Under the pieces are notes generated by a model, which had not been told where the DNA came from, ran no database searches, and worked only from the letters and a program-made list of their open reading frames with translations. A DNA stretch of 64,000 bases. Source: Myxococcota bacterium (GTDB taxonomy: Bacteria; Myxococcota_A; UBA796; UBA2385). The translations under genes and the position numbers were made by a program. The DNA is taken from assembly GCA_942491145.1 (NCBI GenBank), contig CALOBC010000015.1:52707-116706 (forward strand), written 5' to 3'. The stretch's first letter is position 1. Every line of letters begins with the position of its first letter. Shown here piece after piece: positions 12,857 through 31,334 of the stretch.

Positions 12857-14086
12857 ATGATTCGGGTGCGGGTTCGCGGGAAGAACCTGGAGGTCGGCTA
12901 TGTCGACACCGACGACCCACGGATGCTGGAAGTGGCCGAGACGATCTTGGCCATCGTGCAGCAAGCCGCGCTGGAACACTGGCGGCGGGCGGATGTGGAC
13001 GCTGCGCTGCTCGAAGCCGAGGGCTCCGACCCCCGCCACCGGTTGATGCGGGGCATGGCCAAGCTGCTGCTCGACAAGTGTGTCTTTGAGATGGACTGCC
13101 CTGTTGAGCCGGCGGTCCTCCGAAAGACCGTGTTTGAGGCCGCCACCGCCGCGGCCCCGCTGGAGCGGCCGGGGGGCGCCGGGGTGCGACCGACTGCGTC
13201 CGTGGTGTTGGGCGAGCTGGCCCAGACCCTCGATCCCCACCCCTCCACCACGCTACCGTGGACGGTTCAACAACTCCAGAATGCCCTGTACGCGGACCAT
13301 CCCGAGGAACAGTGCTTGGTGTCTCGCAAGGGCCCCGAGACCCCCGAGGACGTGCTGCACGCCTACAACCTGGGGCTGGTCCAGGCCTTGTTGCTCCGCG
13401 CCACCAGCCTCCAGATCCGCATGGCCCGCCCGCCCGCCAAGCACCTGCGGGCGCTGTTTCGCCGGCTCAAGTTTCAGCAGCTGATGTACCGCGTGAAGAC
13501 CACCGGCGGTGATGTGTTGTTGGAACTCGATGGTCCCCAGAGCTTGTTGCAACAGTCGACCCGCTACGGGCTCGCCCTGGCCGTGTTCTTCCCCGCGCTG
13601 CCGTTGTTGCCGGTGGGCTGGACCGCCGAAGCCGAGGTGCTCTGGGGCGGCAAGCGCAAGCTAAAGAAACAACTGATGGTGTCCCACACACGCGGCCTGC
13701 GCAGCCACTACGCCGCTCAAGGAACGTGGCGCTCCAATGCCGAGAAGTGGTTTCTGGAGCGGTGGGAAAAGCTCGACACCGGCTGGGCGGTGTCGGAGGG
13801 CACCTTGATCGACCTGGGGCGCCAAGACCTCGTGCTGCCCGACCTGAGCTTTCGCAAGGGCGGCCGGGTGGCCCACCTCGACATCGTGGGCTTCTGGCGC
13901 AAGGGCTACTTGGAGAAGCGCATCGAGAACACCCCGTCCAACGTGATTCTCGCTGTGTCCAAGCGGCTGATGGGGGACAAGACCGCGCTGCCGGCCACCC
14001 TGGCCAAGCGCGTGGTCCCGTTTGCGGAGATCATCCCCGCCAACAAGGTGCTGGAGCGGCTGGAGCAAGTGGCGCGCCGGGGTTGA
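12857..14086 (+). CDS. DUF790-family protein (Bax1-like endonuclease fold)
   Basis: ATG at 12857. The N-terminus ([16 protein letters not shown]...[17 protein letters not shown]) and C-terminus (VLPDLSF...[17 protein letters not shown]) match the DUF790 pattern as I remember it. Confidence 0.55.
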
Positions 14087-14594: not shown

Positions 14595-15970
14595 GCGGGT
14601 CCGCTCGTCCTCCTGAATTGGCGGCTGTGCCGGTGCTGCCGGCCCTGATTCGGCTGTCCTTGCCGGTCATCGGTCTCAACGTCTTGACCGTGATGGCGTT
14701 GTTTGTCGACACGGTGATGGTGGGGCGCTTGCCCGACAGCGAGTCGGCGCTGACGGGGATGGGCTTCTCGGGCCAGATCGCGTTTCTGCTGATGGTGCTG
14801 ATGATCGGTGTGACCGTCGGCAGCGTTGCGTTTGTGGCCCGTGCCCATGGCTCTGGCGACCGAGAGCGGGTGGACCATGTTGTGGCCCAGTCAGCGACTG
14901 TCGCGGTGCTGCTCGGGCTGCTGATCACGGTCGTTGGGAACGTCTTTGCTGTGCCCATTCTGGAGCTGCTGGGCGCCTCGGGGCCGGACGTGGTGTCGTC
15001 CCTTGAGTATTTGCGTCCGACCTTGTGTTTTGCGGCGGTGAACTACCTCAACATCTTGCTGGCGGCGGTGCTTCGGGGGGTGGGCAACACGCGGCTGCCA
15101 TTCCAAGTGGCCATCGGCAGCAATGTGCTGAACGTGGCGCTCAACTATGTGCTGATCCTGGGCAACCTGGGGATGCCCGCGATGGGGCTGACGGGGGCAG
15201 CGATCGGCACGGGCCTGTCCCAGCTCGCGTCGGTGGTTGTGTTGACGGTGCTCTTGGCCCGGGGTGCGGAGCCGGCCATGCAAGTGCGGCCTCGCTTCGC
15301 TGCGCTGGACGGCGCCCATGTGCGTGACTTGCTCCGCATCGGGGCACCAGCGGCAGTGGACATGCTGGTTCTCAACGCCGGTTTCTTGAGCATCGTCGGG
15401 ATGCTCGGACGGGTCGACCCCTTGGCAGTGGCGGCCCACGGGGTGGGCCTGAGGGTCCAGGCGCTGGCGTTTGTGCCGGGCATGAGCATCTCCCAAGCGA
15501 TTGGGGCGTTGGTTGGCCAAGCGCTGGGCGCCAATGACGTGGCGCGGGCGAAGGCGGTGGTGCGCAGCGGCGTGGGGCTGTGTGTCGTGGTGATGAGCAC
15601 ACTCGCGGCAGTGCTGGTGTTCGGCAAGGCGGGCATCGTGTCGGTGTTCGACATCAACCCCGCGGGGCCGCTCGGTGGCTATGCGATGCAGTGGATGGAG
15701 CTGTTGGGTTGGTGCATGCCTGTGGTGGGCGTCTACATCGCCTTTGTGGGCTTGTTCCAGGGCAGCGGTGCCACCCGGACCTCGCTGGGCATCAACGCCG
15801 CGATGACCCTGCTGTTCCAGATTCCCTTGTCGTATGTATTGGGGTTTTCCTTGGGTCTGGGCACGTTCGGGATCTGGCTGGCGTTCCCGCTTTCGTTTGT
15901 GGGGAAGGCCGTGCTGGGAGGTGTCTTCGTGGCCCGAGGGGACTGGGCGCGCACCGGCGCGTCGGTGTAG
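14591..15970 (+). CDS. MATE-family efflux transporter
   Basis: The GTG start overlaps the gloA stop (GTGA). The ORF is 459 aa with about 12 TM segments and the N-terminal [14 protein letters not shown] motif typical of MATE/NorM. Confidence 0.75.
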
Positions 15971-15995
15971 CGACTGCACACTTGGGCGTCGGCGC

Positions 15996-17264
15996 TCAGC
16001 CCGGCTCGAAGATCAGCGGCAGCAGCAGCGCACCGTCGACCCCCTCGGGCAGGGCGAAGCGGCGGGCCCGGCTGGTGATGCACTCGGCCAGCTTGGGGTC
16101 TCGGGTGGTGTTGTCGGTGACGACCGCGTCGACGACCTTGCCGTTGATGACCTCCATGTCGAGGGCCACACGGCCGGCGAGCTCCGGGTAGATGAGCAGC
16201 CGCTGTTCGTAGCACCGCTTGAGCTTGGGGAGCTGGCGGCGGATGGCGGTGAGCAGGGTCTGGTCGACGGTGCCTTGGGTCTCGGGCACACCGGTGACGG
16301 TCGGCTGGCGCGCGGTGGTCCGGACCCGCTGGACTCTCGCGTCGTGGACGTGTTGGCGGGCCAGGGGGTCGACACGGCCGTCGATGAGTATGGTGCCGGT
16401 GCCGTGGCGCACTCCGCCCACCCGGCCGCCCTCGTCGACGGTGGTGGACCGGTCGAGGGTCTGGGCGATGCCTTCCAAGCCGGTGCCGGCGCCGAAGATC
16501 TCGCTGGCGGTGGTGTTGCCGGAGGACAATGCGCTGAGCAGGCTGGACTGGCGGATGACTTGTTTGTGGGACGGGGACGGGGCGGCGGCCGGCGGCTCGG
16601 CATCGACGGTCTTGGTGACGGGGGTCGACTCGGGGTTGGGCTCGGGCTCCGGCGGCGGTGTGGGCTCGCTGGGCGGGGGCTCGGGCGGTGCCTGAAGATA
16701 GATGCGTACGGTATCTTGGGGCAGGTCGGCCAAGGTGACCGGGCCCACAGGTCCCTGGGTGGAGACCCAAGCCAGCAGCACGGCGGCGGCGGCGGACCAC
16801 CCGCTGAGGAGGCCGAGGAACAGGGGATCGTCGGGATCGAGGAGCTGGGGGCGGAACTGGAGCGGGGGCAGGGTCTGGACCGCGGGAGCCGGGACGAGCT
16901 GGAGCAGGATGGTGGTGGGCCCGATCCGCACCTTGCCGCGCACACCGGGGCGCAAGGGAAGGGTGGCGGGCACGGCATCGCCGAGGTGGTCGAGGTCGAC
17001 GGTGTGCCCCGGCCACACGAGGCGCCCGGTCATGCCGGGATGCACATGGAGCACCGGCACCCCGTCTTGGGGACTGACCAGCACGCACGCCTCAGGAAAG
17101 CCCTCGGGGATGCCGTTGTCGGGGATGGGCACGGTGGTCTGGGCGCCCACGCCCACGGTCACCGGCGACTTCAGGGGGACCAGCTGTTCATGGGTGAGGC
17201 GCCGGTCGCGCACGACGCCAAGGCGAAGGACGAGTCCGTGGGCGGGCGAGCGTTGCGTGGACAT
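15996..17264 (-). CDS. TonB-like protein with proline-rich linker and AgmX/PglI-type C-terminal domain
   Basis: ATG at 17264. The order is an N-terminal soluble domain, one TM segment, a Pro/Glu-rich linker (PPEPPPSEPTPPPEPEPNPE), then a C-terminal LKRCYEQRL...GRVALDMEVINGKV...ECI domain. Confidence 0.55.
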   Translation of the reverse strand: MSTQRSPAHGLVLRLGVVRDRRLTHEQLVPLKSPVTVGVGAQTTVPIPDNGIPEGFPEACVLVSPQDGVPVLHVHPGMTGRLVWPGHTVDLDHLGDAVPATLPLRPGVRGKVRIGPTTILLQLVPAPAVQTLPPLQFRPQLLDPDDPLFLGLLSGWSAAAAVLLAWVSTQGPVGPVTLADLPQDTVRIYLQAPPEPPPSEPTPPPEPEPNPESTPVTKTVDAEPPAAAPSPSHKQVIRQSSLLSALSSGNTTASEIFGAGTGLEGIAQTLDRSTTVDEGGRVGGVRHGTGTILIDGRVDPLARQHVHDARVQRVRTTARQPTVTGVPETQGTVDQTLLTAIRRQLPKLKRCYEQRLLIYPELAGRVALDMEVINGKVVDAVVTDNTTRDPKLAECITSRARRFALPEGVDGALLLPLIFEPG

Positions 17265-17344
17265 GGGGGGCCTCGGGACCCGTGGGCGTCGCGCTGTGCA
17301 CCGGGTCCGAGGGGATCGACCGCCGGGTGGGTGGCGGGTTCCCC

Positions 17345-17416
17345 GAAATCTGCAATTGCGTGCAATTTCCTGCGAGGGCGTGCAATTTGGTGAAAGACGG
17401 GGTGGAAATTGCACGC
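17345..17416. promoter_or_regulatory. Cluster of TGCAATT repeats (3 direct, 1 inverted) in a divergent intergenic region
   Basis: TGCAATT occurs at 17351, 17361 and 17381, spaced 10 and 20 bp. GCGTGCAATTT occurs at 17358-17368 and 17378-17388, with its exact reverse complement AAATTGCACGC at 17406-17416. This is a locally AT-richer patch. Confidence 0.4.
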
Positions 17417-17806
17417 AAGGGACCATCGGCAGTGTGGCCGGGTCGAGGGTCGCTTGTGTCAGGACGGTGTGCTGAGTGCCGTTCAGCACGATGTCTTCGC
17501 GGATCCCCACGCATTGGCGGGGTCCGATCGCCGGGCAGGTGTGGTGCCGTTGCGCGACGCTCCACAACCTTCGACCGGCCGCCCGGGCCGCTGTGCAGGC
17601 CTGCGACCCTGGTGGCCGCCGCGCTGCAGAGGTTGGGGTTGGGCTCGGTCTCGCGGGCCCGTCGGGTTGGCGAGGTGCCGCTTGATTTGTCCAGCGGGCC
17701 AAAGGGACCCGCCTCCATCGCGTCCGTGGGGCCGGTCAGAGCGCCGCGCATCGTCGGTCTGCAACGTCCGGAATATGCCCCCGGCATCGCCTCTCTCCGC
17801 CACACC

Positions 17807-20800
17807 ATGATGCTGCTGGCCAGCGCTGTCCTGGGCCGCTTCCTGGTCGGCGGCTTGGTCTTGGGCTGGATCGGAGCGGCCCATGCCCACCAGCCCGTCA
17901 AGGGGGTGCTCCAGGCCCTCACGACGGAAGACGGGCTGCCCATCAATTGGGTGGCAGCGTTTCTGCAAGACCCGGATGGGGCGCTGTGGATTGGCACCGA
18001 CAGTGGGCTGGTCTGGTACGACGGGGTCGAGTCTGCGGAGGTCCCTGAGCTCGACGGAGTGAGAATTCTCCAGCTCAATATGGATCCCCGCGGGGTCGGT
18101 TGGATCGCATCGAGGGAGACGCTGTGGCGGCTGGACGACGGTGTGTTTCAGCGCGTGCCGATGGAGCCACCGCACCGCGGCATGCCGCTGCACGTGGACG
18201 GAACCGGTGAGGTCTGGATCTCCGGTGATACCGGGTTGACCCGGGTCGACGACCCCAACCGGCACTTGGACACCCCCGATGGCTGTGGGCAGGTTGAGGT
18301 CGGCCAGGGGGCGAGCCTGTGGTGCGCAGGCAGTGGGGTCCCCTTGGCATTGGAGGATGGCGTCTTGCGGGTGTTGCGAGACGTCGCCGGTGCGCCCCTC
18401 CCTGGACCCGAGCTGCTCCGAGACAGCCGCGGCATCAGCTGGGTCCACACGCCCGGTCGTGTTCACCGATATATCCGGGAGGCAGGGGGCTTTCGGGAGC
18501 TGGAGGTTCAGGAGGCGCTGGCCGTCGAAGCGATAGGCATCCTCGAGGCACGCTCCGGCGAGATCTGGATCAACACCGATGACCACAGGGTGCTGGTGTG
18601 GGACGGAGTTGCGCTGCGGGAGCACGCCCGCCTGCGGTCCACCGTTCGCGCGCTCTATGAGGACCGGGAGGGCAGCATCTGGGCGGCCACCCGAGGCCTC
18701 GGAGCGCTCCGGCTGAGCTCGCCCCAGAGCTTCTCGGTGCTGGACAGTGGCTTCGGCGAGGCACCGGTCTGGACCTCGATGGTCACGTCGAGCGGTTCCC
18801 TCATCTTGGCCACCGATGACGGGGTGTTCCAGCGTTCACCATCAGGGGAAATACGCGCTTTGCCCGGGATTGCGAAGGCCTCGGTGTATGCCTTGCATGT
18901 CACCGACGACGGCTCCGTGCTGGTGGGTGGCTACGATGGACTGCACCGATGGACGGGGGAAGCGATGGAGCGCCTGGCCTTTGCTGAGCCTGGCGTGCTG
19001 CTGCGGGGCGGTGTGCTTGAGGACCGCGCTGGACGCATCTGGGCGGGGGGCAGGTACGCCATCTGGCGTTCCGAGGGGCGGGACCAACCGCTGGCGCGTC
19101 TGCCCCTGCCGGTGGAGCTGGGCACCGGCTACCCGGTGGTGGGACCCATTGTGGAGGATCCTGACGGCCAGGTGTGGGCTGCGACAAACGCTGGACTGAT
19201 CCGCTGGGGGGCCGCGGGCGTCGAGGTGTTCAACTTGGGGCCGGTTCGGGGCGTCGCGGTGGGACCCAAAGGGAAGGTCTGGGCGACCCTCGCGAGGGGC
19301 GGCCTCGTCCGGGTGGTGGACGGCGTGGTCCAAGAGCTCGGCGCCGCCCAAGGAATTCCCTCGGGGACCTTACACACCGTGGCCTTCGACAACCACGGCT
19401 CGGTGTGGCTGCCCAGCAACCGCGGGGTGTTTCGCACGAGCGCAGAGGGCTTGGACGCCCTGGCGAGTGACCCGCAGCGAACACTGTTTTTCCACACCTA
19501 CGGCGTCGAGGATGGACTCCCCAGCCTCGAGTGCAACAGCGGCCACCCCGCTGCCATGGTTGACGGGCAGGGTCGAGTCCACATCCCGACCATGCGCGGG
19601 CTGGTGCAGGTGGATCCGGGCGAGCTGCGCCGGGACATGGCTGCACCGGTGGTCACCATTCGACGGGTGGAGGTCGACGGCGAAGCGGTGCCTTGGAACG
19701 GGACCTTGGTGTTGCCCCCCCACGCCCGCTCGCTGGCCATCCACTACTCAGCCCCGGCGCTGCGCGATCCCGCTGGGGTCACCTACCGTTATCGCCTGGA
19801 GGGACACCAAGACGACTGGGTCGAGGCCGAGCGGCGGCGGGTGGCCTTCTGGACCAATCTTGAGGCGGGTACCCACACCTTCCGCCTGCAAGCGCGGAGT
19901 GGCGAGGGGGTGTTGAGCGCCGAAGATGCACTTCTGCCGTTCACTGTGGAAGCCCGACTGGTGGACCGAACCTGGTTTCGGCTGCTGGTTGGCCTCGGGG
20001 TCCTGGCGTTGGGCGCCGTTCTCGTCCGAGTTCAGCTTCACCGCATCCGAGAGCGAGAGCTCACGGCGCTGGTCGATGAACGGACCGCTGAGCTGCGTGC
20101 TGCCCGGGATCGCAGCCGTGAGCAGGCTGCGCGACTGCAGACTCAGGCCCACGAGCTGGAGAAGGTCGATGCCCGCAAGACCCGCTTCTTCGCCAACGTC
20201 AGCCATGAGCTGCGGACGCCGCTGTCGCTCATCCGAGGCCCAGTGAGCGGTGCGCTGTCCTCGGGCCAGTCGCTGGGTCCGGTCGACCTGGCGCGAGTAG
20301 CCCGAAGTGCCCATCGTCTCGAGGTTCTCATTGAGGAACTGCTCGACATCGCGCGGCTTGACGCCGGTCGCTTGCCCCTGCGGGCTCGGGAAGCGGACCT
20401 TGCCGGGTTTGTGGCCGAGCGGGTCGACGCATTTGCCCCGCTGGCCGAGCAGCGGGGGGTGGACCTGAGCTTGGGCAGCGTGCCCGTCACCGCATGGTTC
20501 GACGAAGCACGCCTCGCAAAGGTCGTGGACAACGTGGTGGCGAACGCACTGCGCCACACGGCCGCCGGGGGCACAGTCGATGTGCGCCTGACCACCACGC
20601 CCACCCACGGGTGCATCGATGTGCAGGACTCGGGCAGTGGCATCGCCCCCGAGCACCTGCCCCACATCTTCGACCGCTTCTACCAAGCCCCCGACGGCTC
20701 GGGCGCGTTGTCGGGCAGCGCGGGCCTCGGCCTCGCCTTGAGCCGGGAGCTGGCGCGGCGCCACGGGGGGGAGCTGACGGCACACAGCGAGGTGGGTGCG

Positions 20801-21703
20801 GGCAGCTTGTTCACGCTGCGGCTGCCGCTGGGTCGAGACCACTTGGCCGATGAGGACGTCATCGTGGGTGTCGAGCCGCCCCGCCCGACAGCGCCAGTGA
20901 TCCCCATTGTGCTCCCGGAGGCCGAAGACGCAGCTGCGGCGACGGCGACGGCGACCGTGCTTGTGGTGGAGGACGATGAGGAGCTGCGGTCCTGGATCTG
21001 CCAGGTTCTCCGAGCGCGGTACACGGTGCTGGAGGCCGGGGACGGCGGACAGGGGCTGCAGCTCGCTCGGGCCCACGTGCCCGATGTGGTGCTCACCGAC
21101 GCAGTGATGCCCGTCATGAGTGGGCTGGAGCTGTGCCGTGCGCTGCGCGACGATCCAGCCACCTGCCACCTGCCGGTCGTCATGCTGTCGGCCCGCAGCG
21201 AAGCGGACCGGCGGGTCGAGGGTCTCGCCAGCGGTGTGGATGCCTACCTGGGCAAGCCCTTTCATCCGCACGAGCTGCTGCTTCAGCTCGACAACCTGCT
21301 GGTCGCCCGGTCTCGTCTGCGCGCCCGGCACCACCGCCAGCTCGTCATGGCCGATGACACGCCCGAGCAGGCTTCGGTGGATGATCGATTCCTTGCCCAA
21401 GTGCGCGAGGCCATCCACGCCCACCTGCCCGACGAGGACTTTGGTGTGCGGGGGCTGGCGGACGCGGTCTCCCTCAGCCGGCGACAGCTCGGTCGCAAGC
21501 TGGATGCCCTGATCGGCCAGCCTCCGTCGACCCTCATCCGCCAGATCCGCCTGCAACGGGCCCGCGCGTTGTTGGAGCAGGACGCGGGGAGCATCTCCGA
21601 GGTCGCCTACGCAGTGGGGTTCCGTCGCCCGGGGCGCTTCAGTGAGCAGTTCAAGGCGGAGTTCGGCATGACCCCCACCGAGTTCAAGGCGAGCCAGGGG
21701 TGA
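17807..21703 (+). CDS. Hybrid two-component system: periplasmic propeller/Y_Y_Y sensor, HisKA-HATPase, receiver, AraC-type HTH
   Basis: ATG at 17807 opens a signal/TM segment (MMLLASAVLGRFLVGGLVLGWIGAAHA). About 730 aa of repeated G.(V/L)W.GT..GL propeller-like blades follow, then a TM segment (LLVGLGVLALGAVLV). Next come the H-box SHELRTPLS, a REC domain (VLVVEDDEE...LTDAVMP) and a C-terminal AraC HTH. Confidence 0.8.
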   Translation: MMLLASAVLGRFLVGGLVLGWIGAAHAHQPVKGVLQALTTEDGLPINWVAAFLQDPDGALWIGTDSGLVWYDGVESAEVPELDGVRILQLNMDPRGVGWIASRETLWRLDDGVFQRVPMEPPHRGMPLHVDGTGEVWISGDTGLTRVDDPNRHLDTPDGCGQVEVGQGASLWCAGSGVPLALEDGVLRVLRDVAGAPLPGPELLRDSRGISWVHTPGRVHRYIREAGGFRELEVQEALAVEAIGILEARSGEIWINTDDHRVLVWDGVALREHARLRSTVRALYEDREGSIWAATRGLGALRLSSPQSFSVLDSGFGEAPVWTSMVTSSGSLILATDDGVFQRSPSGEIRALPGIAKASVYALHVTDDGSVLVGGYDGLHRWTGEAMERLAFAEPGVLLRGGVLEDRAGRIWAGGRYAIWRSEGRDQPLARLPLPVELGTGYPVVGPIVEDPDGQVWAATNAGLIRWGAAGVEVFNLGPVRGVAVGPKGKVWATLARGGLVRVVDGVVQELGAAQGIPSGTLHTVAFDNHGSVWLPSNRGVFRTSAEGLDALASDPQRTLFFHTYGVEDGLPSLECNSGHPAAMVDGQGRVHIPTMRGLVQVDPGELRRDMAAPVVTIRRVEVDGEAVPWNGTLVLPPHARSLAIHYSAPALRDPAGVTYRYRLEGHQDDWVEAERRRVAFWTNLEAGTHTFRLQARSGEGVLSAEDALLPFTVEARLVDRTWFRLLVGLGVLALGAVLVRVQLHRIRERELTALVDERTAELRAARDRSREQAARLQTQAHELEKVDARKTRFFANVSHELRTPLSLIRGPVSGALSSGQSLGPVDLARVARSAHRLEVLIEELLDIARLDAGRLPLRAREADLAGFVAERVDAFAPLAEQRGVDLSLGSVPVTAWFDEARLAKVVDNVVANALRHTAAGGTVDVRLTTTPTHGCIDVQDSGSGIAPEHLPHIFDRFYQAPDGSGALSGSAGLGLALSRELARRHGGELTAHSEVGAGSLFTLRLPLGRDHLADEDVIVGVEPPRPTAPVIPIVLPEAEDAAAATATATVLVVEDDEELRSWICQVLRARYTVLEAGDGGQGLQLARAHVPDVVLTDAVMPVMSGLELCRALRDDPATCHLPVVMLSARSEADRRVEGLASGVDAYLGKPFHPHELLLQLDNLLVARSRLRARHHRQLVMADDTPEQASVDDRFLAQVREAIHAHLPDEDFGVRGLADAVSLSRRQLGRKLDALIGQPPSTLIRQIRLQRARALLEQDAGSISEVAYAVGFRRPGRFSEQFKAEFGMTPTEFKASQG

Positions 21704-22141
21704 CGGCGGCCGCCAGGTGTGCCTGGGGACTGGGCCGCGCCTGAGCTGGAGCAGGCTGGTGGGACCCGCGTCTTGGGGTCTCGTTGGTGAGCTGCGTGTG
21801 GTTGCCGGACCGGTCGGATGTGGATCGGCGCAGCAGGTTCGAAGGGCTCCTCCTTCGGCGCATGGTGCGGGGGCTGCTGGCAGGGCGCTGCAGCCTGGGG
21901 CCACAGTTGGGCGTGCGCCAGGCGGGGCAAGCTCGATCCTCCCCGCTGGCACTGCCGTCGATCTCATGCCCCATGTCGAGCCCATTCAGGGCCCAGTGTA
22001 CCCCGGCTCGGGACATCGCTTGGCCAGTTTGGGGACATGGACAGAATCCAGCCAAGTTCGTCCCACCCCACACCCAGGGCTGGTCGTAGAACTCATGCAT
22101 CGCCGCCGACGCGGCATCACCCCCACCCCAAAGGAGAGACC

Positions 22142-22192
22142 ATGAAGACCAAGACCCGCGTGAAGGCTGGCGGACAGCTCACGAACATCTGA
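22142..22192 (+). CDS. Mini-ORF A1: 16-aa Gly-Gly peptide precursor MKTKTRVKAGG-QLTNI
   Basis: ATG follows AAGGAGAGACC. Fourteen of 16 third positions are G/C, and the ORF ends in TGA. It is identical to A3. Confidence 0.65.
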   Translation: MKTKTRVKAGGQLTNI

Positions 22193-22228
22193 GACCCTAC
22201 CCATCCACCCCCACCAAGAGGAAGGACC

Positions 22229-22278
22229 ATGAGACCAAGACCCGCGTGAAGGCTGGCGGACAGCTCACGAACATCTGA
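22229..22278 (+). pseudogene. Mini-ORF A2: same sequence as A1/A3 with a 1-nt deletion (ATGAGACC versus ATGAAGACC); frameshifted
   Basis: As written it reads MRPRPA*. The downstream 45 nt are identical to A1/A3 but have no in-frame ATG. Confidence 0.55.
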
Positions 22279-22314
22279 GACCCTACCCACCCATCCCCAC
22301 CAAGAGGAAGGACC

Positions 22315-22365
22315 ATGAAGACCAAGACCCGCGTGAAGGCTGGCGGACAGCTCACGAACATCTGA
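22315..22365 (+). CDS. Mini-ORF A3: 16-aa peptide MKTKTRVKAGG-QLTNI
   Basis: ATG follows AGAGGAAGGACC. The sequence is nucleotide-identical to A1. Confidence 0.65.
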   Translation: MKTKTRVKAGGQLTNI

Positions 22366-22401
22366 GACCCTACCCACCCATCCCCACCATGAGGAGAGAC
22401 C

Positions 22402-22455
22402 ATGAAGACCAAGTCTAAGATGAAGGCTGGCGGCGTCGTCTGGGACGGCAGCTAG
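22402..22455 (+). CDS. Mini-ORF B1: 17-aa peptide MKTKSKMKAGG-VVWDGS
   Basis: ATG follows GAGGAGAGACC and the stop is TAG. The peptide is conserved with B2 although the flanks are unrelated. Confidence 0.65.
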   Translation: MKTKSKMKAGGVVWDGS

Positions 22456-22471
22456 CGCTTCCCCGGGCTCT

Positions 22472-22500
22472 CTGAACTGTTCAGGCAGTTCCTGGAACTG
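22472..22500. promoter_or_regulatory. Two adjacent palindromes between mini-ORFs B1 and B2
   Basis: CTGAACtGTTCAG lies at 22472-22484 and CAGTTCCtGGAACTG at 22486-22500. GAACTG (22474-22479) can also pair with CAGTTC (22486-22491). Confidence 0.3.
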
Positions 22501-22545
22501 TCCCCGTGTTCGAGCACCAACCCACCCAAGACCACTGGAGAACCC

Positions 22546-22599
22546 ATGAAGACCAAGTCCAAGATCAAGGCTGGCGGCGTCGTCTGGGACGGCAACTGA
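22546..22599 (+). CDS. Mini-ORF B2: 17-aa peptide MKTKSKIKAGG-VVWDGN
   Basis: ATG follows TGGAGAACCC and the stop is TGA. It differs from B1 by TCT/TCC (synonymous), ATG/ATC and AGC/AAC. Confidence 0.65.
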   Translation: MKTKSKIKAGGVVWDGN

Positions 22600-22605
22600 G
22601 ATCTC

Positions 22606-22643
22606 CCCAGGGCCCCTCCGACCGAGTCGGGGCGGGCCCTGGG
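22606..22643 (+). terminator. GC-rich stem-loop immediately after the last mini-ORF
   Basis: CCCAGGGCCC (22606-22615) pairs with GGGCCCTGGG (22634-22643). An inner CTCCGAC/GTCGGGG stem has a 3-nt loop, giving about 17 bp with one bulge. There is no T-tract, which is common in high-GC genomes. Confidence 0.55.
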
Positions 22644-22824
22644 ACCGTCCGTCTGGCGGCACCCCCATCCAGCGCCCCACGCCGTGGGGTTTCTGTTCCT
22701 CCCTCACGCTGCGCGCGGGGGAGGTCTGTGCGTCTTGGGTCTGGTGGACGGGTCCACTGATGGATTGCGCGGCCCGTTGACATCGGTCCGGGGCGTCGGG
22801 CACTCTCATTTGGACGTGTGTCGC

Positions 22825-22877: not shown

Positions 22878-24980
22878 TCAAGGATGGGCGATCACCACCA
22901 ACGCCTCCGCCCTTCGCTGCACTGTGGCCATGGCTCGGCGAAGGCTGGCTGGGTCCAGCGCAGCAAAGCTCTCATCCAGCACGATGACGTCGGAGTCCTG
23001 AAGCAAGGTGCGGGCGATGTAGAGCCGGCTCTTCTCGCCATGAGACAGCCGCCAGCCGGTCTCGCCCACGAGCTGCATCAAGCCGCCGGGCATGCGCTCA
23101 ATGAGCCCACCGAGGCCCAGCTCTTCGCAGATGGTCTGTGCGAGGGCAATGTCGCTGGGCGCTGGCGGCCACGCACGACCCATGAGCAAGTTGAACAGAA
23201 AGGTGTTGGCCAGCACGTGGTTGTCGTGGAATTGGGGCGCACAGCTTGTGACCCGACGCCAGCCCGCTTCGCCCAAGGTGGCGCGGTCCAAGCCGCCGCT
23301 GAGCACCAGGCCCGCCGAGGGTGCCCGCAAGCCGAGGAGCACCGCAGCGAGTGTGGACTTGCCGCCGCCTGAGCTGCCCGTGAGCAGGATCCGATCCCCG
23401 CGCTGGATGGTCAGCGAGCAGCCCCGGAGCACGGGCGCACCGCCGGGGTAGGCGAAGTCGACCTTGCGCACCGAGAGGAGCCCGTCGGTCGGCGCAGCGA
23501 TGACCTGGGCATTGGCCTCGCCGTGGGTGATGGGGCGGCCGGCAGCATCGTAGAGCGGGCGGACCTGGGAGACGGCCACCACGGCCCCCGACAGCTGGGT
23601 CATGCCGAGTGACAGGGCGTGCAGCGCCCGGCCGGCGAGCAGCACCCCCCCGAGGGCGACGGCGATGCGGGTGGACGACGCCCCGAAGACCAAGAGCTGG
23701 CCTACGCCGGCGAGCCCCACGAGCATCCACCCCCGAGGCAGGGTCACCCGGAGGTGCGCGGCCGTGGCATCCAGCGCCGCCGAGGCCCTGAGATAGGCGC
23801 TCAGTTCGTGGTCTTCACCATCGTGGTGCCGTTCCGGGGGTTCCTGGGCGAGGCGGGTGCGGTGGCCGGCCATGCGCTCCACAAGGGAGCCCGTCATGGA
23901 GAGGCGTGCGGCTGTCCACACGCGGTGGTGGCGGAGGTGGCGAGTGCCGACAAGGGCCAGAGTGCCGATCCAGCCGAGCAACAACAGGGGCAGCATTGGG
24001 CCGCCAAGGGAGAGCACCCACGAGGCGCCCACCAGCTCCAGCAGCGCCAGGGCCGCGGCCACCCCACCGCTCAGCGCGAGCTGCTCCATGGCCTCGGCCT
24101 CGTTGACCCGGCCCATGGTCAGGCCAATGCCATCGCTGCGGCACTCATCGGGCTGCATGCGCAGCGCCCCGACCAACAACCGGCGCTTGAGGAGCGCCCC
24201 GCCTTCAATTGCCAGCACTCCCTGTGCCCAGGTGGTGAGCTGGCGCAGCGGCACCGTGGTGAGCAGCAGCAAACCCCAGGCGAGCAGCCAGCCCGACTGC
24301 AGCGCTCCGTCCAGCGCCGCCTTTCCCACAAGAGCCCATGCCAACACGAAGATGACGTACTGGGTGAGATGGGCGACAGCGACCACCCCACCCTGGCGCA
24401 GCAACTTTGACTCCTTGAGCTGAGCGGTCAAGCTGGCTGACGGGGGCAGCCTCAGCATCCACAAGCCCGAACAGGGGGCACCAGCGAGGCGCTCGGCCAA
24501 GAGGGCCCGCCGGGCGCGGTCTCTTCGGCGCCCAGGGGGCACAGTGCCGTCGAGCAGGGCGTCGATGCCCGGTCCAAAGCGGTCTTCGAGGGGTGCGGAG
24601 AGGGCCGCGCGGAGTGCTTCCACAGCCACCCGCTGGCGACGGCCGTCCGGGCCAATGAGGGTGGCTTGGCGGCCGCGACGACCGACTGATGCGAGCAACA
24701 GCAGGCGCTTTGGTCCCGGTTCGGGGAGCATGAGCAGGGCGGGCGCGACGTGCTGGAGGGCGTGGGTGAGGTCCCCGTACGCGGCGACCAGCGGCTCCAC
24801 TTCCAGGCCCGCCCGCCCGGCGGCCACGTCGAGCCAGTCCTCCAAGGCGCCGTCGGGGAGGGCACCGGGGGGATCTGCGATCCGGGTCGGGGCCTGCCCC
24901 CCGTACCCACCGTGCGCGGCGAGCACATTGAGGGCTTGGCCGAGGTTAACGACAGACCACTGGCACGGGTCCAGACTCAT
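22878..24980 (-). CDS. ABC transporter permease/ATPase, the second ABC of the export cassette; no C39 catalytic motifs
   Basis: The ATG overlaps the upstream stop (ATGA). It has Walker A GSSGGGKST, signature LSHGEKSR and Walker B VIVLDESF. A roughly 170-aa N-terminal extra domain lacks the Cys/His peptidase motifs. Confidence 0.8.
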   Translation of the reverse strand: MSLDPCQWSVVNLGQALNVLAAHGGYGGQAPTRIADPPGALPDGALEDWLDVAAGRAGLEVEPLVAAYGDLTHALQHVAPALLMLPEPGPKRLLLLASVGRRGRQATLIGPDGRRQRVAVEALRAALSAPLEDRFGPGIDALLDGTVPPGRRRDRARRALLAERLAGAPCSGLWMLRLPPSASLTAQLKESKLLRQGGVVAVAHLTQYVIFVLAWALVGKAALDGALQSGWLLAWGLLLLTTVPLRQLTTWAQGVLAIEGGALLKRRLLVGALRMQPDECRSDGIGLTMGRVNEAEAMEQLALSGGVAAALALLELVGASWVLSLGGPMLPLLLLGWIGTLALVGTRHLRHHRVWTAARLSMTGSLVERMAGHRTRLAQEPPERHHDGEDHELSAYLRASAALDATAAHLRVTLPRGWMLVGLAGVGQLLVFGASSTRIAVALGGVLLAGRALHALSLGMTQLSGAVVAVSQVRPLYDAAGRPITHGEANAQVIAAPTDGLLSVRKVDFAYPGGAPVLRGCSLTIQRGDRILLTGSSGGGKSTLAAVLLGLRAPSAGLVLSGGLDRATLGEAGWRRVTSCAPQFHDNHVLANTFLFNLLMGRAWPPAPSDIALAQTICEELGLGGLIERMPGGLMQLVGETGWRLSHGEKSRLYIARTLLQDSDVIVLDESFAALDPASLRRAMATVQRRAEALVVIAHP

Positions 24981-27571
24981 GGCTGGTCCTCGACCAAAAT
25001 GCCGTCATTCAAGGACACATTGCGCCAGTCCATGCCGGCCCAGGATGCGCCTTGCAGCGCTGCCTCCGCGTCCATCAGCTGCCGGTAGCGAGAGGGGCCC
25101 GCGAGGAGCTCCGCGGGGGGAGCGGCCTCGACCACCCGGCCGTCTTCGACCACCAAGACTTGGTCAAACCCGAGGGTGTGGTCGATGTCATGGGTGATGC
25201 ACAGCAGCGTGGCGTCTCTCCAGTGGCGTCGGGCCACACCGAGCAGCGCCCGGCGCCGGTCCCGGTCCAGCCCCCGAAAGGGCTCGTCGAGAATGGCCAG
25301 TCGTGTGGGGCCCCGACTGAGCGCTCGGCCGAGGCGCACCCGCTGGCCCTGTCCGCCGGAGAGCCGTCCGCCCCCCTCCCCGAGGGAGGTCTGCAGTCCG
25401 TCGGGGAGGCGATCGAGGACGTCCATGAGGTCGGCGTCTTGGAGGGCCTGCGCGACTGATTGTTCCGGCGGTGCGCCATAGCGGAGGTTGTCGAGGAGGG
25501 ACCGGTTCCAGAGCTGGACCTCGGGGTCCACCCAGGCCGTGCACCGTCGGAGCGCCGCCACCCGCGCGGGGTCCAGGGCTTCCTGGTTCACCGAGAGGGT
25601 GCCGCTGGCTGGGCGGTGCCACCCGAGCAGCAAGCCCGCCAGACTGGACTTGCCCGAGCCCGAGGAACCCACAATGGCGACATGACAGCCCGCGGGAATG
25701 TTGATGTTTACGTTGTTCAGGATGGTCTGTCCGCCGGCCACCACCGACAGGGCTTCGGCCTGGATGGCCACCGCGCCGTTGCCGGGCAGCGTCCCTGGTG
25801 CGTCGGCAGCACTCGCCGACTCCGGCGCCAGAAGTGGCTCCAGCAGGCGCAACAGCACACTGCGCATGGCCGGGTATTGGCGGGTGGCCACGGCCACTTG
25901 CTGACCGTAGGCTGGAAGCGCGAGCGCCCAATAGATGAGCAGCAACCCGCCCTGGTCAGCGGCGAAGAGGGCGACCAAGCTGGCCGCCACCGCAAGGCCC
26001 ACGCTGGCGATGAGACCCTCGAGGAGGACCGCGGTGCGCTGCAGGGAGAGGCCCGCGTGGCCCCACTCCACCAGCCGGGCCGCGTGCTCCCGTCGCAGCG
26101 CTCGCTCGGCCCCGTGGCTGCGAATGGCTGCGAGGCCCAGCAAGGCGTCGAGGTAGAAGCGGCTCAAGGCACCGAGGTGCGCTCGCTGACGCAGGTCCTG
26201 CTCGGCCAGGAGGGGATGGCAGAGCAGCGGCAAGCCCACTGCGACCACCGCCGCGAGCAGTGCGAGGGGGGCCGCGGCCGGTGCCAGCCAGATGATGCCC
26301 GCAGTGGTCAGCACGAGGCGGGCGACGCCCTGAAGCAAGCTCTGGCCCGCCTGGGGCACCCGTCGCAGCAAGTGTGTGGCGTGGCTGCGCTCGGCCATGT
26401 CCGAGATGAGGCGGCTCTGGAAGTAGTGGTCCGGGAGCCGAGGCAGCTTCGTCATGAAGGCCAGACGAAGTCGAGCATCGAGGGCCCGCCCGGAGTCGAG
26501 CACGCCACGGGTGACTTGCAGCTCCAGGAACACACCCACCGCCACCAGCGTGATGACGGCCGCGAGGGCACCGACTTGGTTGAGGGGCACCGGCATCAGG
26601 GTGCCGAGCTCCAGCAGCCCCCGCAACAGCAGTGCTTCGAGGAGCACCGTGATCGCCGAGACAGCGAGCGCCCCCACCAGCACGGCGGGCGCGAGCAGCC
26701 CGTCCTCGGCCAAGTACCTTCCCAAGGACCGCAGGGGTGCAGGCTCGGGCTCGCTCAAGGCAGCACGCAGCTCGGGGCCCAAGCTGGCCTCGTCCACGTC
26801 GGCCCGTCCGCTGGCCCGTACCAGCACTGCGCCGCGGAGGAGGAGCTGAGGGTCCCCCTCTTCGTCGGGCTCGGTGGGCTGCACCGACCACGCACTGGGG
26901 GAGATGGTGGATGGTTCAGCCACGAGCTTGACCAAGGCCCCGTGGGCTTCTGCGCCCCGCCTTAGACCGCCAGCGGCGACCACCGAAGCCACCATGCGGG
27001 TGGCTGCGTCTAGGCGGGCGAGGCCACCCCAGCTGGGATCGGCCAGCGCGGAAGCGCTCAGTGCTGCGGCGTCTTCGCCACCGATGGCCCGCAGACGGGC
27101 GTGAAGCGTCGCCTGGAACTCCTGGTCGCCGGCCCACTCCCGCCAGTCGGCCGCCGGCACTGGCAGGCTGTGCTTGTAGAGCAGGTCGAGCAGGTCGCTT
27201 CGGCGCAACCAGCGTCGGCCCACCGCCGGGTCCATCACTTGGACGAAGGGGCCCACTACCGACCAGACCACCACGAAGTGGGAGACCCCGCTGGGCGTGC
27301 GGATGACCACAATGGCGGGCAGTGCGTGGGCCTCGGGCAGCAGCACGTGGTCTGCTGGGAGCATCACCTCTTCGCACGCCAAGCCAAGCTGGGTGGCCAC
27401 CTCTTCCATTGCGGAGATTGATGTGCCGTCCACGTCCGTCTGGCAGGCTTCCCGCAGGCGGGCGTAGCTGACAGGCAGGTGGAAGCCGGCGAGCAGCGCG
27501 GTGAGGGCGGCCGGCCCGCAGTCCATGCCGGAGGTCTGGATGACCTCGGGAACCAGTCGGCGGGCGCTCAT
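24977..27571 (-). CDS. Peptidase-containing ABC transporter (C39 double-glycine peptidase, TMD, NBD)
   Basis: The ATG at 27571 overlaps the HlyD stop (ATGA). C39 triad contexts are GMDCGPAAL (Cys), VSHFVVVW (His) and VMDPAVG (Asp). It also has Walker A GSSGSGKSS, signature LSGGQGQR and Walker B LAILDEP. Confidence 0.85.
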   Translation of the reverse strand: MSARRLVPEVIQTSGMDCGPAALTALLAGFHLPVSYARLREACQTDVDGTSISAMEEVATQLGLACEEVMLPADHVLLPEAHALPAIVVIRTPSGVSHFVVVWSVVGPFVQVMDPAVGRRWLRRSDLLDLLYKHSLPVPAADWREWAGDQEFQATLHARLRAIGGEDAAALSASALADPSWGGLARLDAATRMVASVVAAGGLRRGAEAHGALVKLVAEPSTISPSAWSVQPTEPDEEGDPQLLLRGAVLVRASGRADVDEASLGPELRAALSEPEPAPLRSLGRYLAEDGLLAPAVLVGALAVSAITVLLEALLLRGLLELGTLMPVPLNQVGALAAVITLVAVGVFLELQVTRGVLDSGRALDARLRLAFMTKLPRLPDHYFQSRLISDMAERSHATHLLRRVPQAGQSLLQGVARLVLTTAGIIWLAPAAAPLALLAAVVAVGLPLLCHPLLAEQDLRQRAHLGALSRFYLDALLGLAAIRSHGAERALRREHAARLVEWGHAGLSLQRTAVLLEGLIASVGLAVAASLVALFAADQGGLLLIYWALALPAYGQQVAVATRQYPAMRSVLLRLLEPLLAPESASAADAPGTLPGNGAVAIQAEALSVVAGGQTILNNVNINIPAGCHVAIVGSSGSGKSSLAGLLLGWHRPASGTLSVNQEALDPARVAALRRCTAWVDPEVQLWNRSLLDNLRYGAPPEQSVAQALQDADLMDVLDRLPDGLQTSLGEGGGRLSGGQGQRVRLGRALSRGPTRLAILDEPFRGLDRDRRRALLGVARRHWRDATLLCITHDIDHTLGFDQVLVVEDGRVVEAAPPAELLAGPSRYRQLMDAEAALQGASWAGMDWRNVSLNDGILVEDQP

Positions 27572-28734
27572 TCGGGAGACGGCAGAAGGCGCTGCCCAGC
27601 GGCCCGCAGTGCGAGGGCGGCGGGGCTCAGCCGCTCCAAGTCCACTTCGACGACCCCCGGCAAGCCATGGGCGAGCGGAATCTGGGAGGGCGCTGCGGTC
27701 GGATCCAGCTCGAGCTCTATTCGAAGGCCACTGGCATCGGGCTCGCTGGCGACGGCGGTGACACGGACGGGGACCATCCCGAACTGGCTCCACGGAAAGC
27801 CATCCAGCCGCATTCGGCCCTCGGCACCCGGGGTGATGCGGCCTGCCACAACGAGGGGAAAGGTTGCGACGGCATGCAGCGTGTCGACGGGCACCACTGA
27901 GGCAACCGGTGCTCCTTTCGACACTCGCATGCCTTGTGCCAGCATTGCGAGAGCGCCCACAATGCCGTCGCTGGGGGCCAGAATGCGGTGTCGCCCGACG
28001 GCACCATCGAGGGTGTCCCGTCGGGCCTCGCAGGCGCGGAGGTCGGCAGCCTGGGCCGCCGCGTGGCCTTGGCTCACCACCACATCGACCTGGCGGTCCA
28101 GGCTTGTGGCGCTGGCGGACCCGCGCTGGTGTTCGACAATCCAGGCCCGGGCTTGGGCTTCAGCCTGACGCTGCCTTGCCTCCCCGACCCGTGCCGCCAC
28201 CTCCGCCTCGGGGGCGGTCCCTTCGATGCCCAGGCGGGCCGCACGGTCGGCATCTTGGGTGGCCAGCTTCGCCACCTCGTCCGCCGCGCTGGCGCTGCGA
28301 AGAGCTCCTTGGACGGCGGCATCGCCGGAAGAGGCCGCCGCAGCCCGGGCTGCTTCTTGCACCGAGACCGCAGCGTTGGCGGCCCGGGCTTGCTCCCGGA
28401 TGCTCTCGCAGCGGCTGGTCTCGGCCGCGAGGGCGAGCACGGCGTCGGTGTCATCGAGCTGGATGAGCAGATCGCCAGCCTGCACCGCCTGTCCCAGTCC
28501 CACCGCGACGCGCACCACCACGCCGTCGAATGGCGCGCTGAGCTGGCGGGGATGGCCAGTGGACTCCAGGCGAGCTTGCGTGGAGGCCGCCTGGATGGGC
28601 ACTTCCGCGAAGAAGAACCACGCCGACCAGCCGGCCAGAAGGCCCATTCCCAGGACGGCGAAGCCGGCCGTGGCCAAGCGGTGCAGGCGGTCGCGGTGGA
28701 GCGCTCGGAGGGTCTGGGAGAAGGCAGACGGCAT
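27568..28734 (-). CDS. HlyD-family membrane-fusion / secretion adaptor protein
   Basis: Probable ATG at 28734 (MPSAFSQTL...). It has an N-terminal TM segment (FAVLGMGLLAGWSAWFFFA), a long Ala-rich coiled-coil, and a C-terminal beta-barrel motif (ILAPSDGIVGAL...GAPVASVVP). Confidence 0.8.
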   Translation of the reverse strand: MPSAFSQTLRALHRDRLHRLATAGFAVLGMGLLAGWSAWFFFAEVPIQAASTQARLESTGHPRQLSAPFDGVVVRVAVGLGQAVQAGDLLIQLDDTDAVLALAAETSRCESIREQARAANAAVSVQEAARAAAASSGDAAVQGALRSASAADEVAKLATQDADRAARLGIEGTAPEAEVAARVGEARQRQAEAQARAWIVEHQRGSASATSLDRQVDVVVSQGHAAAQAADLRACEARRDTLDGAVGRHRILAPSDGIVGALAMLAQGMRVSKGAPVASVVPVDTLHAVATFPLVVAGRITPGAEGRMRLDGFPWSQFGMVPVRVTAVASEPDASGLRIELELDPTAAPSQIPLAHGLPGVVEVDLERLSPAALALRAAGQRLLPSPE

Positions 28735-28792
28735 GGCCGAACTGTACCGGATGGCGGCCGCGGGATGACAGCTTGAACCGGTAGTACGTTGT

Positions 28793-28808
28793 AGCACCTG
28801 TACTGCCG
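28793..28808 (-). promoter_or_regulatory. Sigma-54-like -24/-12 element upstream of the HlyD gene (weak candidate)
   Basis: The minus strand reads CGGCAGTACAGGTGCT against consensus TGGCACG-N4-TTGCW. GG and GC have the correct 12-nt register, and the element lies about 60 nt upstream of ATG 28734. There are three mismatches, and no enhancer-binding protein is in the window. Confidence 0.2.
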
Positions 28809-31203: not shown

Positions 31204-31334
31204 GCGGGTCTCCTGAACCGATTGACGGCTCCACCCTACAACGCGCTCTGCCCGAGGCGCTTGCCCGTGAGCAGCGGCCGGTCTATCGTGCCGCCTCGAC
31301 TGCCCTGCTCATGCAGGGGGAGGACCGCTCCACA

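Follow-up and report, generated by a model that had tools for sequence, protein, structure and literature searches.

Hybrid two-component systems (HTCSs) have, to our knowledge, been studied almost solely in Bacteroidota, as sensors of glycans by which polysaccharide utilisation loci (PULs) are activated. Here, an HTCS gene is described from a stretch of 64,000 nucleotides of contig CALOBC010000015.1 of a Myxococcota bacterium (positions 52,707 to 116,706; in the following "the window"), where it lies directly upstream of an array of very short open reading frames (mini-ORFs) that stands beside a peptide exporter. The domain order of its product is identical to that of the single-polypeptide HTCSs of Bacteroides thetaiotaomicron (the heparin sensor BT4663, and BT3049 and BT4673), and these proteins are also the best matches in the PDB to the fold of its sensor, yet the sequence identity is only about 17%. 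As in Bacteroides, the putative target adjoins the HTCS gene, and the candidate operator is a direct repeat whose halves are spaced 21-22 bp start to start, as predicted there (PMC3878776). Unlike the Bacteroides systems, this one belongs to a high-GC host, has no PUL beside it, and has as its putative target a GG-leader peptide array next to a C39-ABC exporter.

The array and its exporter invite comparison with two further groups of systems. In the Gram-positive ComC/ComAB/ComDE and BlpC/BlpAB/BlpRH systems, precursors with a GG motif are handled by a C39-ABC exporter and its accessory protein, and a sensor kinase, along with a DNA-binding response regulator, is encoded next to them. The window similarly combines small putative precursors with a motif of GG type, a C39-ABC exporter with an accessory protein, and an adjacent sensor and regulator. 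It differs in that the leader has 10-11 and the core 5-7 residues, in that the cell is diderm, and in that a periplasmic propeller is fused to the regulator, where Com and Blp have a polytopic kinase of HPK10 type and a separate LytTR regulator. The three-part layout of the exporter, with a C39-ABC protein, a peptidase-less ABC protein and an HlyD protein, is that of the NHLM systems for bacteriocin export (TIGR03796, TIGR03797, TIGR03794). The closest NCBIfam models, NHLM_micro_ABC1, ABC2 and HlyD, are however matched far below cut-off (194.2 against 853.3, 117.7 against 709.4 and 22.6 against 156.2 bits), and by these equivalog cut-offs the window exporter is not a member of the NHLM families. 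The cargo of NHLP and Nif11 type consists of precursors with a long leader, whereas the cargo in the window consists of tiny peptides with a leader of some 10 residues.

The reading that is favoured here, and that the sequence comparisons make rather probable, is that the HTCS binds a direct repeat between its own gene and the array, and activates the array, whose products the C39-ABC system would process and export.

A Bacteroides-type HTCS in a high-GC genome

The product of the gene is a bona fide HTCS of the Bacteroides type: one polypeptide contains a transmembrane (TM) segment, a sensor of two propellers and a Y_Y_Y domain, a second TM segment, the HisKA/HATPase_c kinase core, and a REC domain followed by an AraC-type helix-turn-helix (HTH). 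The first-pass annotation had read the same order from signal or TM segment to AraC HTH, that is, from sensor to DNA in one protein, and Pfam, AlphaFold2 and Foldseek agree with it. All Pfam matches exceed the curated cut-off, including a Reg_prop match of 63.6 bits in the sensor, and the residues on which phosphotransfer depends are legible in the translation: the H-box (SHELRTPL), the acidic pocket and phospho-acceptor Asp of REC (VVEDD...LTDAVMP) and the conserved REC Lys (YLGKPF). GC at the three codon positions is 0.75/0.49/0.81, in a window with 68% GC overall. Together with the AgmX/PglI C-terminal domain encoded upstream and the Ser/Thr kinase and FG-GAP/MopE genes in the vicinity, this GC content points to a host that probably belongs to Myxococcota.

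The fold of the sensor was predicted with AlphaFold2 for residues 1-764, from an input alignment of 48 sequences. The model has a mean pLDDT of 90.8 and a pTM of 0.81, and shows an all-beta sensor bounded by helices 2-26 and 722-763. When it is compared with the PDB by Foldseek, the periplasmic domain of BT4663 (4a2m/4a2l) is the top match, with an E value of about 4e-37 and TM-scores of 0.65-0.69. BT3049 (3v9f) and BT4673 (3ott) are further top matches, and the four entries together span E values from 4e-37 to 3e-28. Two of them, 4a2l and 3v9f, are found already from the HTCS sequence alone in a PDB sequence search (E about 1e-13).

Control of an adjacent PUL is a functional habit of the Bacteroides members and not a structural criterion, and no sign of it is seen here: by Pfam and NCBIfam, neither SusC/D genes nor glycoside hydrolases occur among the scanned neighbours of the HTCS, which are a protein with an AgmX/PglI tail, MatE, DUF790, a Ser/Thr kinase, the C39-ABC/ABC/HlyD exporter, a 788-residue protein and an FG-GAP/MopE protein. 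The same architecture is present in many homologs of at most 36% identity in Acidobacteriota, Gemmatimonadota, Rhodothermales and Bacteroidota, and since these span the first three groups, it is not confined to Bacteroidota.

An AT-rich repeat cluster (17349-17414) occupies the intergenic region between the divergent AgmX/PglI-tail gene and the HTCS. It contains GTGCAATTT at 17360, 17380 and, on the reverse strand, 17406, which are the sole three exact copies in the 64 kb, as well as CTGCAATTG at 17349. The cluster is probably the binding site of some regulator, and its GTGCAATTT repeat was not found in the gap before the array. An exact look-up with the HTCS yielded no contig. Independently assembled DNA from this region exists in a Logan contig (L207), which is 100% identical to positions 15570-22203 of the window.

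A candidate operator between the HTCS and the peptide array

The HTCS and the array are both encoded on the forward strand and are separated by 438 bp. The first-pass annotation had placed them next to each other in the same orientation, with no other credible gene between them, and this holds: the coordinates agree, GC at the three codon positions of the gap is 0.66/0.65/0.61, that is, without the signal seen as about 0.5/0.8 in genes, and no open reading frame in the gap follows the GC3 > GC1 > GC2 pattern of the window's real genes. Rfam has no match within 17-23 kb, and a search for repeats within the gap with a seed of 6 gave nothing useful.

The gap contains a direct repeat, GGGACAT-N15-GGGACAT, with boxes at 22010 and 22032, or -132 and -110 from the ATG of the first mini-ORF. 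Its significance follows from comparison with the closest relatives of the HTCS. Among 5.8 billion proteins these form only two clusters (P0002 with 57% and P0003 with 56% identity; the next best protein has 36%), and in the contigs that carry them (L001-L006) an operon diverges from the HTCS gene. The promoter of this operon has GGGACAC-N14-GGGACAT at -113/-92 in L001 and GGGACGG-N14-GGGACAC at -112/-91 in L005, in both cases in the direction of the target gene. The general pattern GGGACR-N13-17-GGGACR has a single match in the 64-kb window, which is the one in the gap, and one match in each of L001-L006, always in the promoter beside the HTCS ortholog. It is found also in L207, which is identical to this part of the window, and in none of the other 202 of the 209 loci collected.

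Because the motif had first been spotted by eye, unbiased controls were run, in which all pairs of identical hexamers on the same strand, 20-23 bp apart and present both in the gap and in an ortholog intergenic region, were scanned for. The sole shared pair is GGGACA. Any shared pair at all appears in 0.8% of shuffles, and in none of 2122 real windows of 438 bp taken from the rest of the window and from two contigs of the same lineage (L208, L209). The recognition helices of the AraC domain (SRRQLGRK, RFSEQF) are near-identical in the three orthologs and different in a paralog. For 16 HTCSs of Bacteroides, the predicted operators consist of directly repeated sites with a spacing of about 21 bp, read as the seats of two monomers on a single face of the helix (PMC3878776), and the repeat at 22010-22038, taken here as a candidate operator, agrees with this spacing.

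Two further features recur in the three promoters. An inverted repeat of 6-7 bp brackets the proximal box (22019-22024/22051-22056 in the window, 9870-9910 in L001 and 9940-9985 in L005), with CTTGGC...GCCAAG as its arms in the window and CTTCCG...CGGAAG as those in the orthologs, and a hexamer that begins with TA and resembles a -10 element follows the proximal box after 49-50 nt (TAGAAC, TACAAC, TACGGG). Alignment of the gap with the ortholog promoters by MAFFT gives no extended homology beyond the motif, from which follows that the promoter as a whole was not inherited. In the surroundings of the orthologs, L005 has a second HTCS paralog (18605-22762, 30% identity) 4.6 kb downstream of the ortholog, and L001 has, at 14000-14033, downstream of its HTCS ortholog and before a three-gene operon, the perfect palindrome GGCCATATCCGG-N10-CCGGATATGGCC.

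The array consists of four intact units and one with a deletion. Each intact peptide has 16-17 codons, with a leader of the form MKTK..KAGG (10-11 residues) and a core of about 5-7 residues, and the cores are of two quite unlike kinds, QLTNI and VVWDG[SN]. The second unit has lost one nucleotide (ATGAGACC in place of ATGAAGACC), so that its reading frame stops after 6 codons, and either the copy has decayed or the repeat was misassembled here. The independent contig L207 breaks off inside the array. The hairpin region that closes the transcription unit has an RNA folding energy of -56.3 kcal/mol (z = -2.8), and a scan for terminators reports the same site as terminator-like. The peptides carry a KAGG motif and the Cys and His of the C39 domain are intact, while the leader has merely 10-11 residues and relatives of the peptides conserve only KAG and not GG.

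To see how these parts may work together, consider the HTCS as a membrane-anchored dimer. By homology with the Bacteroides HTCSs, a periplasmic ligand would bind to the double-propeller/Y_Y_Y sensor, upon which the kinase core would autophosphorylate on the His of the H-box and the phosphoryl group would be passed to the Asp of the protein's own REC domain. Phosphorylated REC would then free the C-terminal AraC-type domain for DNA binding, and two such domains would occupy GGGACAT-N15-GGGACAT, some 100-130 bp upstream of the first mini-ORF, from the same face of the helix. Bound there, we infer, they would activate a promoter of a kind other than sigma-54 that drives the five-unit array, and the peptides would lose their KAG(G) leader by cleavage behind it and leave the cell through the convergent C39-ABC/ABC/HlyD system. 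The ligand could be a glycan, another periplasmic cue, or the peptides themselves.

Table 1. Positions of the features in the window and of the related loci named in the text (TM, transmembrane segment; RBS, ribosome-binding site)
Feature	Position	Strand	Residues	Remarks
HTCS gene	17807..21703	+	1298 aa	probable start ATG 17807
HTCS signal/TM1			1-27	
HTCS periplasmic double beta-propeller and Y_Y_Y sensor			~28-720	
HTCS Y_Y_Y			655-714	Pfam, 43.2 bits
HTCS TM2	20015-20077		~737-757	
HTCS HisKA	20177-20368		791-854	Pfam
HTCS HATPase_c	20501-20833		899-1009	Pfam
HTCS REC (Response_reg)	20957-21283		1051-1159	Pfam
HTCS AraC-type HTH_18	21455-21691		1217-1295	Pfam
Gap between HTCS stop (21703) and first mini-ORF ATG (22142)	21704..22141	+		438 bp, non-coding; putative regulatory region of the array
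Candidate HTCS operator, GGGACAT-N15-GGGACAT	22010..22038	+		direct repeat, 22 bp start to start, pointing toward the array
Mini-ORF array	22142..22599	+		five units, each with its own GGAG-type RBS; repeat families D1-D3
Mini-ORF units one and three	22142-22192; 22315-22365	+		both encode MKTKTRVKAGGQLTNI
Mini-ORF unit two	22229-22278	+		copy with 1-nt deletion
Mini-ORF unit four	22402-22455	+		encodes MKTKSKMKAGGVVWDGS
Mini-ORF unit five	22546-22599	+		encodes MKTKSKIKAGGVVWDGN
Two hairpins closing the array transcription unit	22606..22699	+		17-18-bp stem at 22606-22643; 22674-22690 followed by U-run
Export operon	22878..28797	-		convergent with the array; context of the array, not part of the HTCS
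ABC2, second ABC half-transporter	22878-24980	-		Pfam
ABC1, C39-peptidase ABC transporter	24977-27571	-		catalytic Cys in MDCGPAAL, His in VSHFVVV
HlyD-type adaptor	27568-28797	-		Pfam
Gene for 788-aa protein	28837-31203	-	788 aa	abuts the export operon
FG-GAP/MopE gene	31311-33542	+		divergent from the 788-aa gene
Gene with AgmX/PglI C-terminal domain	15996-17264			domain above cut-off; upstream of the HTCS, divergent
Related array loci	L010-L084, L087-L206			e.g. L027 15161-16154, L077 20244-21165
Terriglobia/Bryobacterales modules (kinase-PD40, FHA-GAF-sigma-54 activator, promoter)	L066 15093-17669; L039 19997-21949; L026 19841-19856	+ (L066); - (L039)		
AraC_binding+HTH_18 regulators	L027 6887-7804; L037 7226-8197; L061 6927-7907; L105, L108, L190, L206	- (L027, L037, L061)		

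Linkage of the HTCS to the array in relatives

The first-pass annotation had expected that HTCS and array would be found together in related genomes if they form a circuit, and this synteny is absent in both directions. On the side of the HTCS, neither a C39-ABC nor an HlyD gene nor a mini-ORF matching the leader occurs within 10 kb in the ortholog contigs L001-L006. Both ortholog lineages share the divergent operon, which is absent from the window and encodes a protein of 410 or 404 residues, a protein of 283 residues and, as third gene, a SAM methyltransferase. The 410-residue protein has no match in Pfam or NCBIfam and the 283-residue protein only a weak match to UbiA, from which follows that the targets of the orthologs give no clue to the ligand. 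On the side of the array, a genome scan with the C39-ABC protein of the window gave 80 loci from many phyla at about 50% identity, where ABC2 accompanies the exporter in 72 and HlyD in 49, and no HTCS sensor, no Y_Y_Y domain and no AraC domain of HTCS type lies within 10 kb in any of the 80. A metagenome scan for tandem leader patterns gave at least 120 contigs; among the matches listed, 102 of 120 have two or more mini-ORFs that match the leader, and none of the 120 has an HTCS. Taken together, more than 150 loci with arrays are without an HTCS. From the missing synteny on both sides follows that the link between HTCS and array is lineage-specific, and not a conserved circuit.

The position of the exporter and array in the genome can be judged from the 788-residue protein, whose gene abuts the export operon and which, from G.VW motifs, had been thought to resemble the propeller sensor. 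That resemblance is not borne out. The protein has no Pfam or NCBIfam match, its best BLASTP alignment with the HTCS sensor is not significant (E = 0.17) and consists of DxxGxVW-like snippets only, its last 190 or so residues (from about residue 600) are a Gly-rich low-complexity tail, mainly of GGGGQ repeats, and its AlphaFold2 model is so poor (pLDDT 52.5) that it gives no ground for assigning a propeller fold; the reading of this protein as another propeller sensor is discarded. Its only two homologs in the protein collection, with 57-58% identity, are encoded in L208 and L209, in both cases divergently from an FG-GAP/MopE gene as in the window (the gene pair spans 7674-12118 in L208 and 7584-12079 in L209), and neither exporter, array nor HTCS stands beside the pair there. 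The genes that follow the pair in L208 (a hutF-like gene, a 176-residue protein and a PKD protein) correspond to positions 58.5-64 kb of the window. From this follows that the 788-residue protein, whose gene adjoins the exporter by chance, is a resident and stands outside the exporter system, and further that the exporter-array cassette sits at a synteny breakpoint of the lineage.

These results weigh against control of the array by the HTCS, and the breakpoint means in particular that their adjacency could be an accident of insertion. Further properties of the gap and the operator add to this. The core of the operator is only 6-7 bp long, it is seen in only two independent ortholog lineages besides the window, and it was by eye that it was noticed. 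A scan of the gap for the -35 and -10 consensus of sigma-70 recognises no promoter. No intrinsic terminator was found after the HTCS, so that plain read-through from the HTCS gene could also transcribe the array.

It may thus be asked whether HTCS and array are neighbours by coincidence, the cassette having been inserted beside an orphan HTCS, or one with some other target, with an array that is constitutive, read through or controlled from elsewhere, and with GGGACAT boxes that are a chance occurrence or the site of another factor. The lack of synteny, the breakpoint with the 788-residue and FG-GAP pair standing alone in L208 and L209, and the absent terminator are all as such a coincidence would have them. 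The same can be said of the threefold GTGCAATTT repeat, which is separate from the GGGACAT boxes and marks the HTCS's own upstream region, and of the many array loci elsewhere that have housekeeping neighbours only. What makes the coincidence unlikely, in our judgement, is that the repeat in the gap matches the ortholog promoters in sequence, spacing, orientation and distance at once, that it is unique in the 64 kb and absent from the 202 other loci and the 2122 control windows, that the DNA-reading helices are kept among the orthologs, and that the array has neither the sigma-54 promoter nor the regulators of related arrays. The proposal of the first-pass annotation that the AraC output acts on the region at 21.7-22.1 kb is in this way strengthened in silico by the repeat, while the synteny that should have accompanied it is lacking.

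Regulation of the array by the HTCS can be reconciled with its restriction to one lineage if an exporter-array cassette, which is widespread and mobile, was here placed under an HTCS whose relatives have a different operon as target. The wiring would then be particular to this lineage.

The peptide family, its regulators and a possible peptide signal

The peptides of the window belong to a family that is encoded in tandem arrays and has the leader MK[VT]K[TS]xxKAG and, behind it, a core of 3-20 residues that is hypervariable. Of the 80 genome loci, 33 have leader-bearing mini-ORFs in tandem beside the related exporter, and the metagenomes contribute at least 431 peptides, at least 357 of them distinct, in at least 120 soil contigs. 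The family is represented in Acidobacteriota, Chloroflexota, Myxococcota, Methylococcales and Rhodothermales. An NCBIfam scan of eight of the longer peptides gave no family, and a search of the literature found nothing relevant on the mini-peptides or on functions of HTCSs outside Bacteroidota. The family is apparently very widespread and, as far as could be found, undescribed.

The regulators beside related arrays are of several kinds. A Ser/Thr kinase that combines a TM segment with a PD40 beta-propeller comes after ABC2 in about 28 loci of Acidobacteriota. An FHA-GAF-sigma-54 activator diverges from the array in about 19 of the genomic loci, and before those arrays, at -60 to -100, a sigma-54 promoter of the form TGGCAC-N5-TTGCA is found with 10-12 of 12 positions. 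In Terriglobia and Bryobacterales, kinase, activator and promoter together look like a complete, undescribed signalling circuit. In at least 7 loci of Pyrinomonadaceae type, a one-component regulator with AraC_binding and HTH_18 domains (73-83% mutual identity) is divergent from the array. Other array loci have a TPR protein or housekeeping neighbours alone, and many are without an adjacent sensor. In the window, the gap has no sigma-54 promoter of the kind that is clear in related arrays (the best match has 9 of 12 positions and lacks the -12 element TTGC), and a sigma-54 activator is absent from the whole 64 kb. The HTCS occupies the position that elsewhere is held by dedicated regulators, and it would here substitute for the Ser/Thr kinase and FHA-sigma-54 activator, or for the classical AraC regulator, of other lineages.

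The Acidobacteriota modules (e.g., L066 and L039) resemble the HTCS in that they stand beside exporter and array, have an extracytoplasmic propeller sensor, and have as output a transcription factor whose matching promoter lies upstream of the array, the HTCS site being a candidate in this respect. They differ from it in that they consist of two proteins and in that Pkinase, FHA and AAA+ sigma-54 domains take the place of a His-Asp phosphorelay and an AraC domain, with which they are not homologous. Their promoter is moreover sigma-54 dependent, and in many genomes they are kept together with the cassette, whereas only in this window is an HTCS seen linked to it.

Two of the related loci illustrate how the arrays occur. 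In the uncultured Acidobacteriota locus L084, 22 kb contain four arrays (1529-1723, 8243-8577, 15043-15247 and 18570-18759), three of which have their own adjacent Ser/Thr kinase, and two of these also an FHA-sigma-54 activator, which suggests that several parallel peptide circuits exist in one genome. Locus L059 (7020-7399; NZ_CP169217.1) is from the complete genome of a cultured strain, Methylomicrobium lacus 22M6SE5-12, and has a three-unit array of the form MKVK[TS]KVKAG...NRCETFR[RG], followed by a TPR_12 protein and an HlyD/ABC1/ABC2 operon. This strain could serve as an experimental host for the mini-peptide family.

The ligand of the HTCS may be considered in the light of these loci. 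The boldest proposal, made already in the first-pass annotation, is an autoinduction loop, in which the 5-7-residue peptides released by C39 would re-enter the periplasm and bind to the HTCS propeller, with the AraC output activating the array, as a circuit of peptide quorum sensing or positive feedback. Everything that argues for regulation of the array by the HTCS applies here too, the catalytic site of C39 is intact and the peptides have a GG-type motif, and the pheromone loci of Gram-positive GG peptides (Com, Blp) share the same logic. By analogy, the kinases of the roughly 28 related loci also pair an extracytoplasmic beta-propeller (PD40) with the exporter, and have as partners of their own an FHA-sigma-54 activator and, ahead of the array, a sigma-54 promoter, from which it would follow that a propeller sensor beside the array recurs with non-homologous parts. 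Against this stands the fact that every characterised sensor of this fold binds glycans (BT4663 and relatives, by their PDB descriptions). The orthologs, moreover, have sensor regions that are 52-53% identical to that of the window and reside in loci without arrays or exporters, so that the peptides and this lineage of sensors have not evolved together. In many array loci a neighbouring sensor is missing, and a single receptor would have to be matched with an array that encodes two cores as different as QLTNI and VVWDG[SN]. Autoinduction through the HTCS is for these reasons a doubtful proposition. Equally tentative is the assignment of the HTCS propeller as receptor of the exported peptides, or, more broadly, of extracytoplasmic beta-propeller kinases, including the Ser/Thr kinase-PD40 proteins of Acidobacteriota, as receptors of the MKxKTxxKAG mini-peptides.

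As a protein, the HTCS is a further member of its family, and the novelty lies in the system, which has no PUL and has a peptide array as its putative target. In a distant lineage of high GC, a complete HTCS appears, as judged from sequence comparison, to have been connected with an array of tiny peptides for export by way of a recognisable candidate operator. If confirmed, this would mean that mobile cassettes for peptide export can recruit one-protein regulators that are tethered to the membrane, and that the regulatory module of such a cassette is interchangeable, being an HTCS in one lineage, a Ser/Thr kinase with an FHA-sigma-54 activator in another, and a classical AraC regulator in a third. 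Should the sensing of peptides be true, the locus would be a loop of quorum sensing by peptides in a diderm bacterium, with a sensor whose fold is known only for glycans. The locus also gives a handle on an abundant, uncurated family of peptides of soil bacteria, in the form of a 29-bp site, a soluble sensor domain and a set of defined peptides, by which it may be learned whether the mini-peptides are a signal, a bacteriocin or something else.

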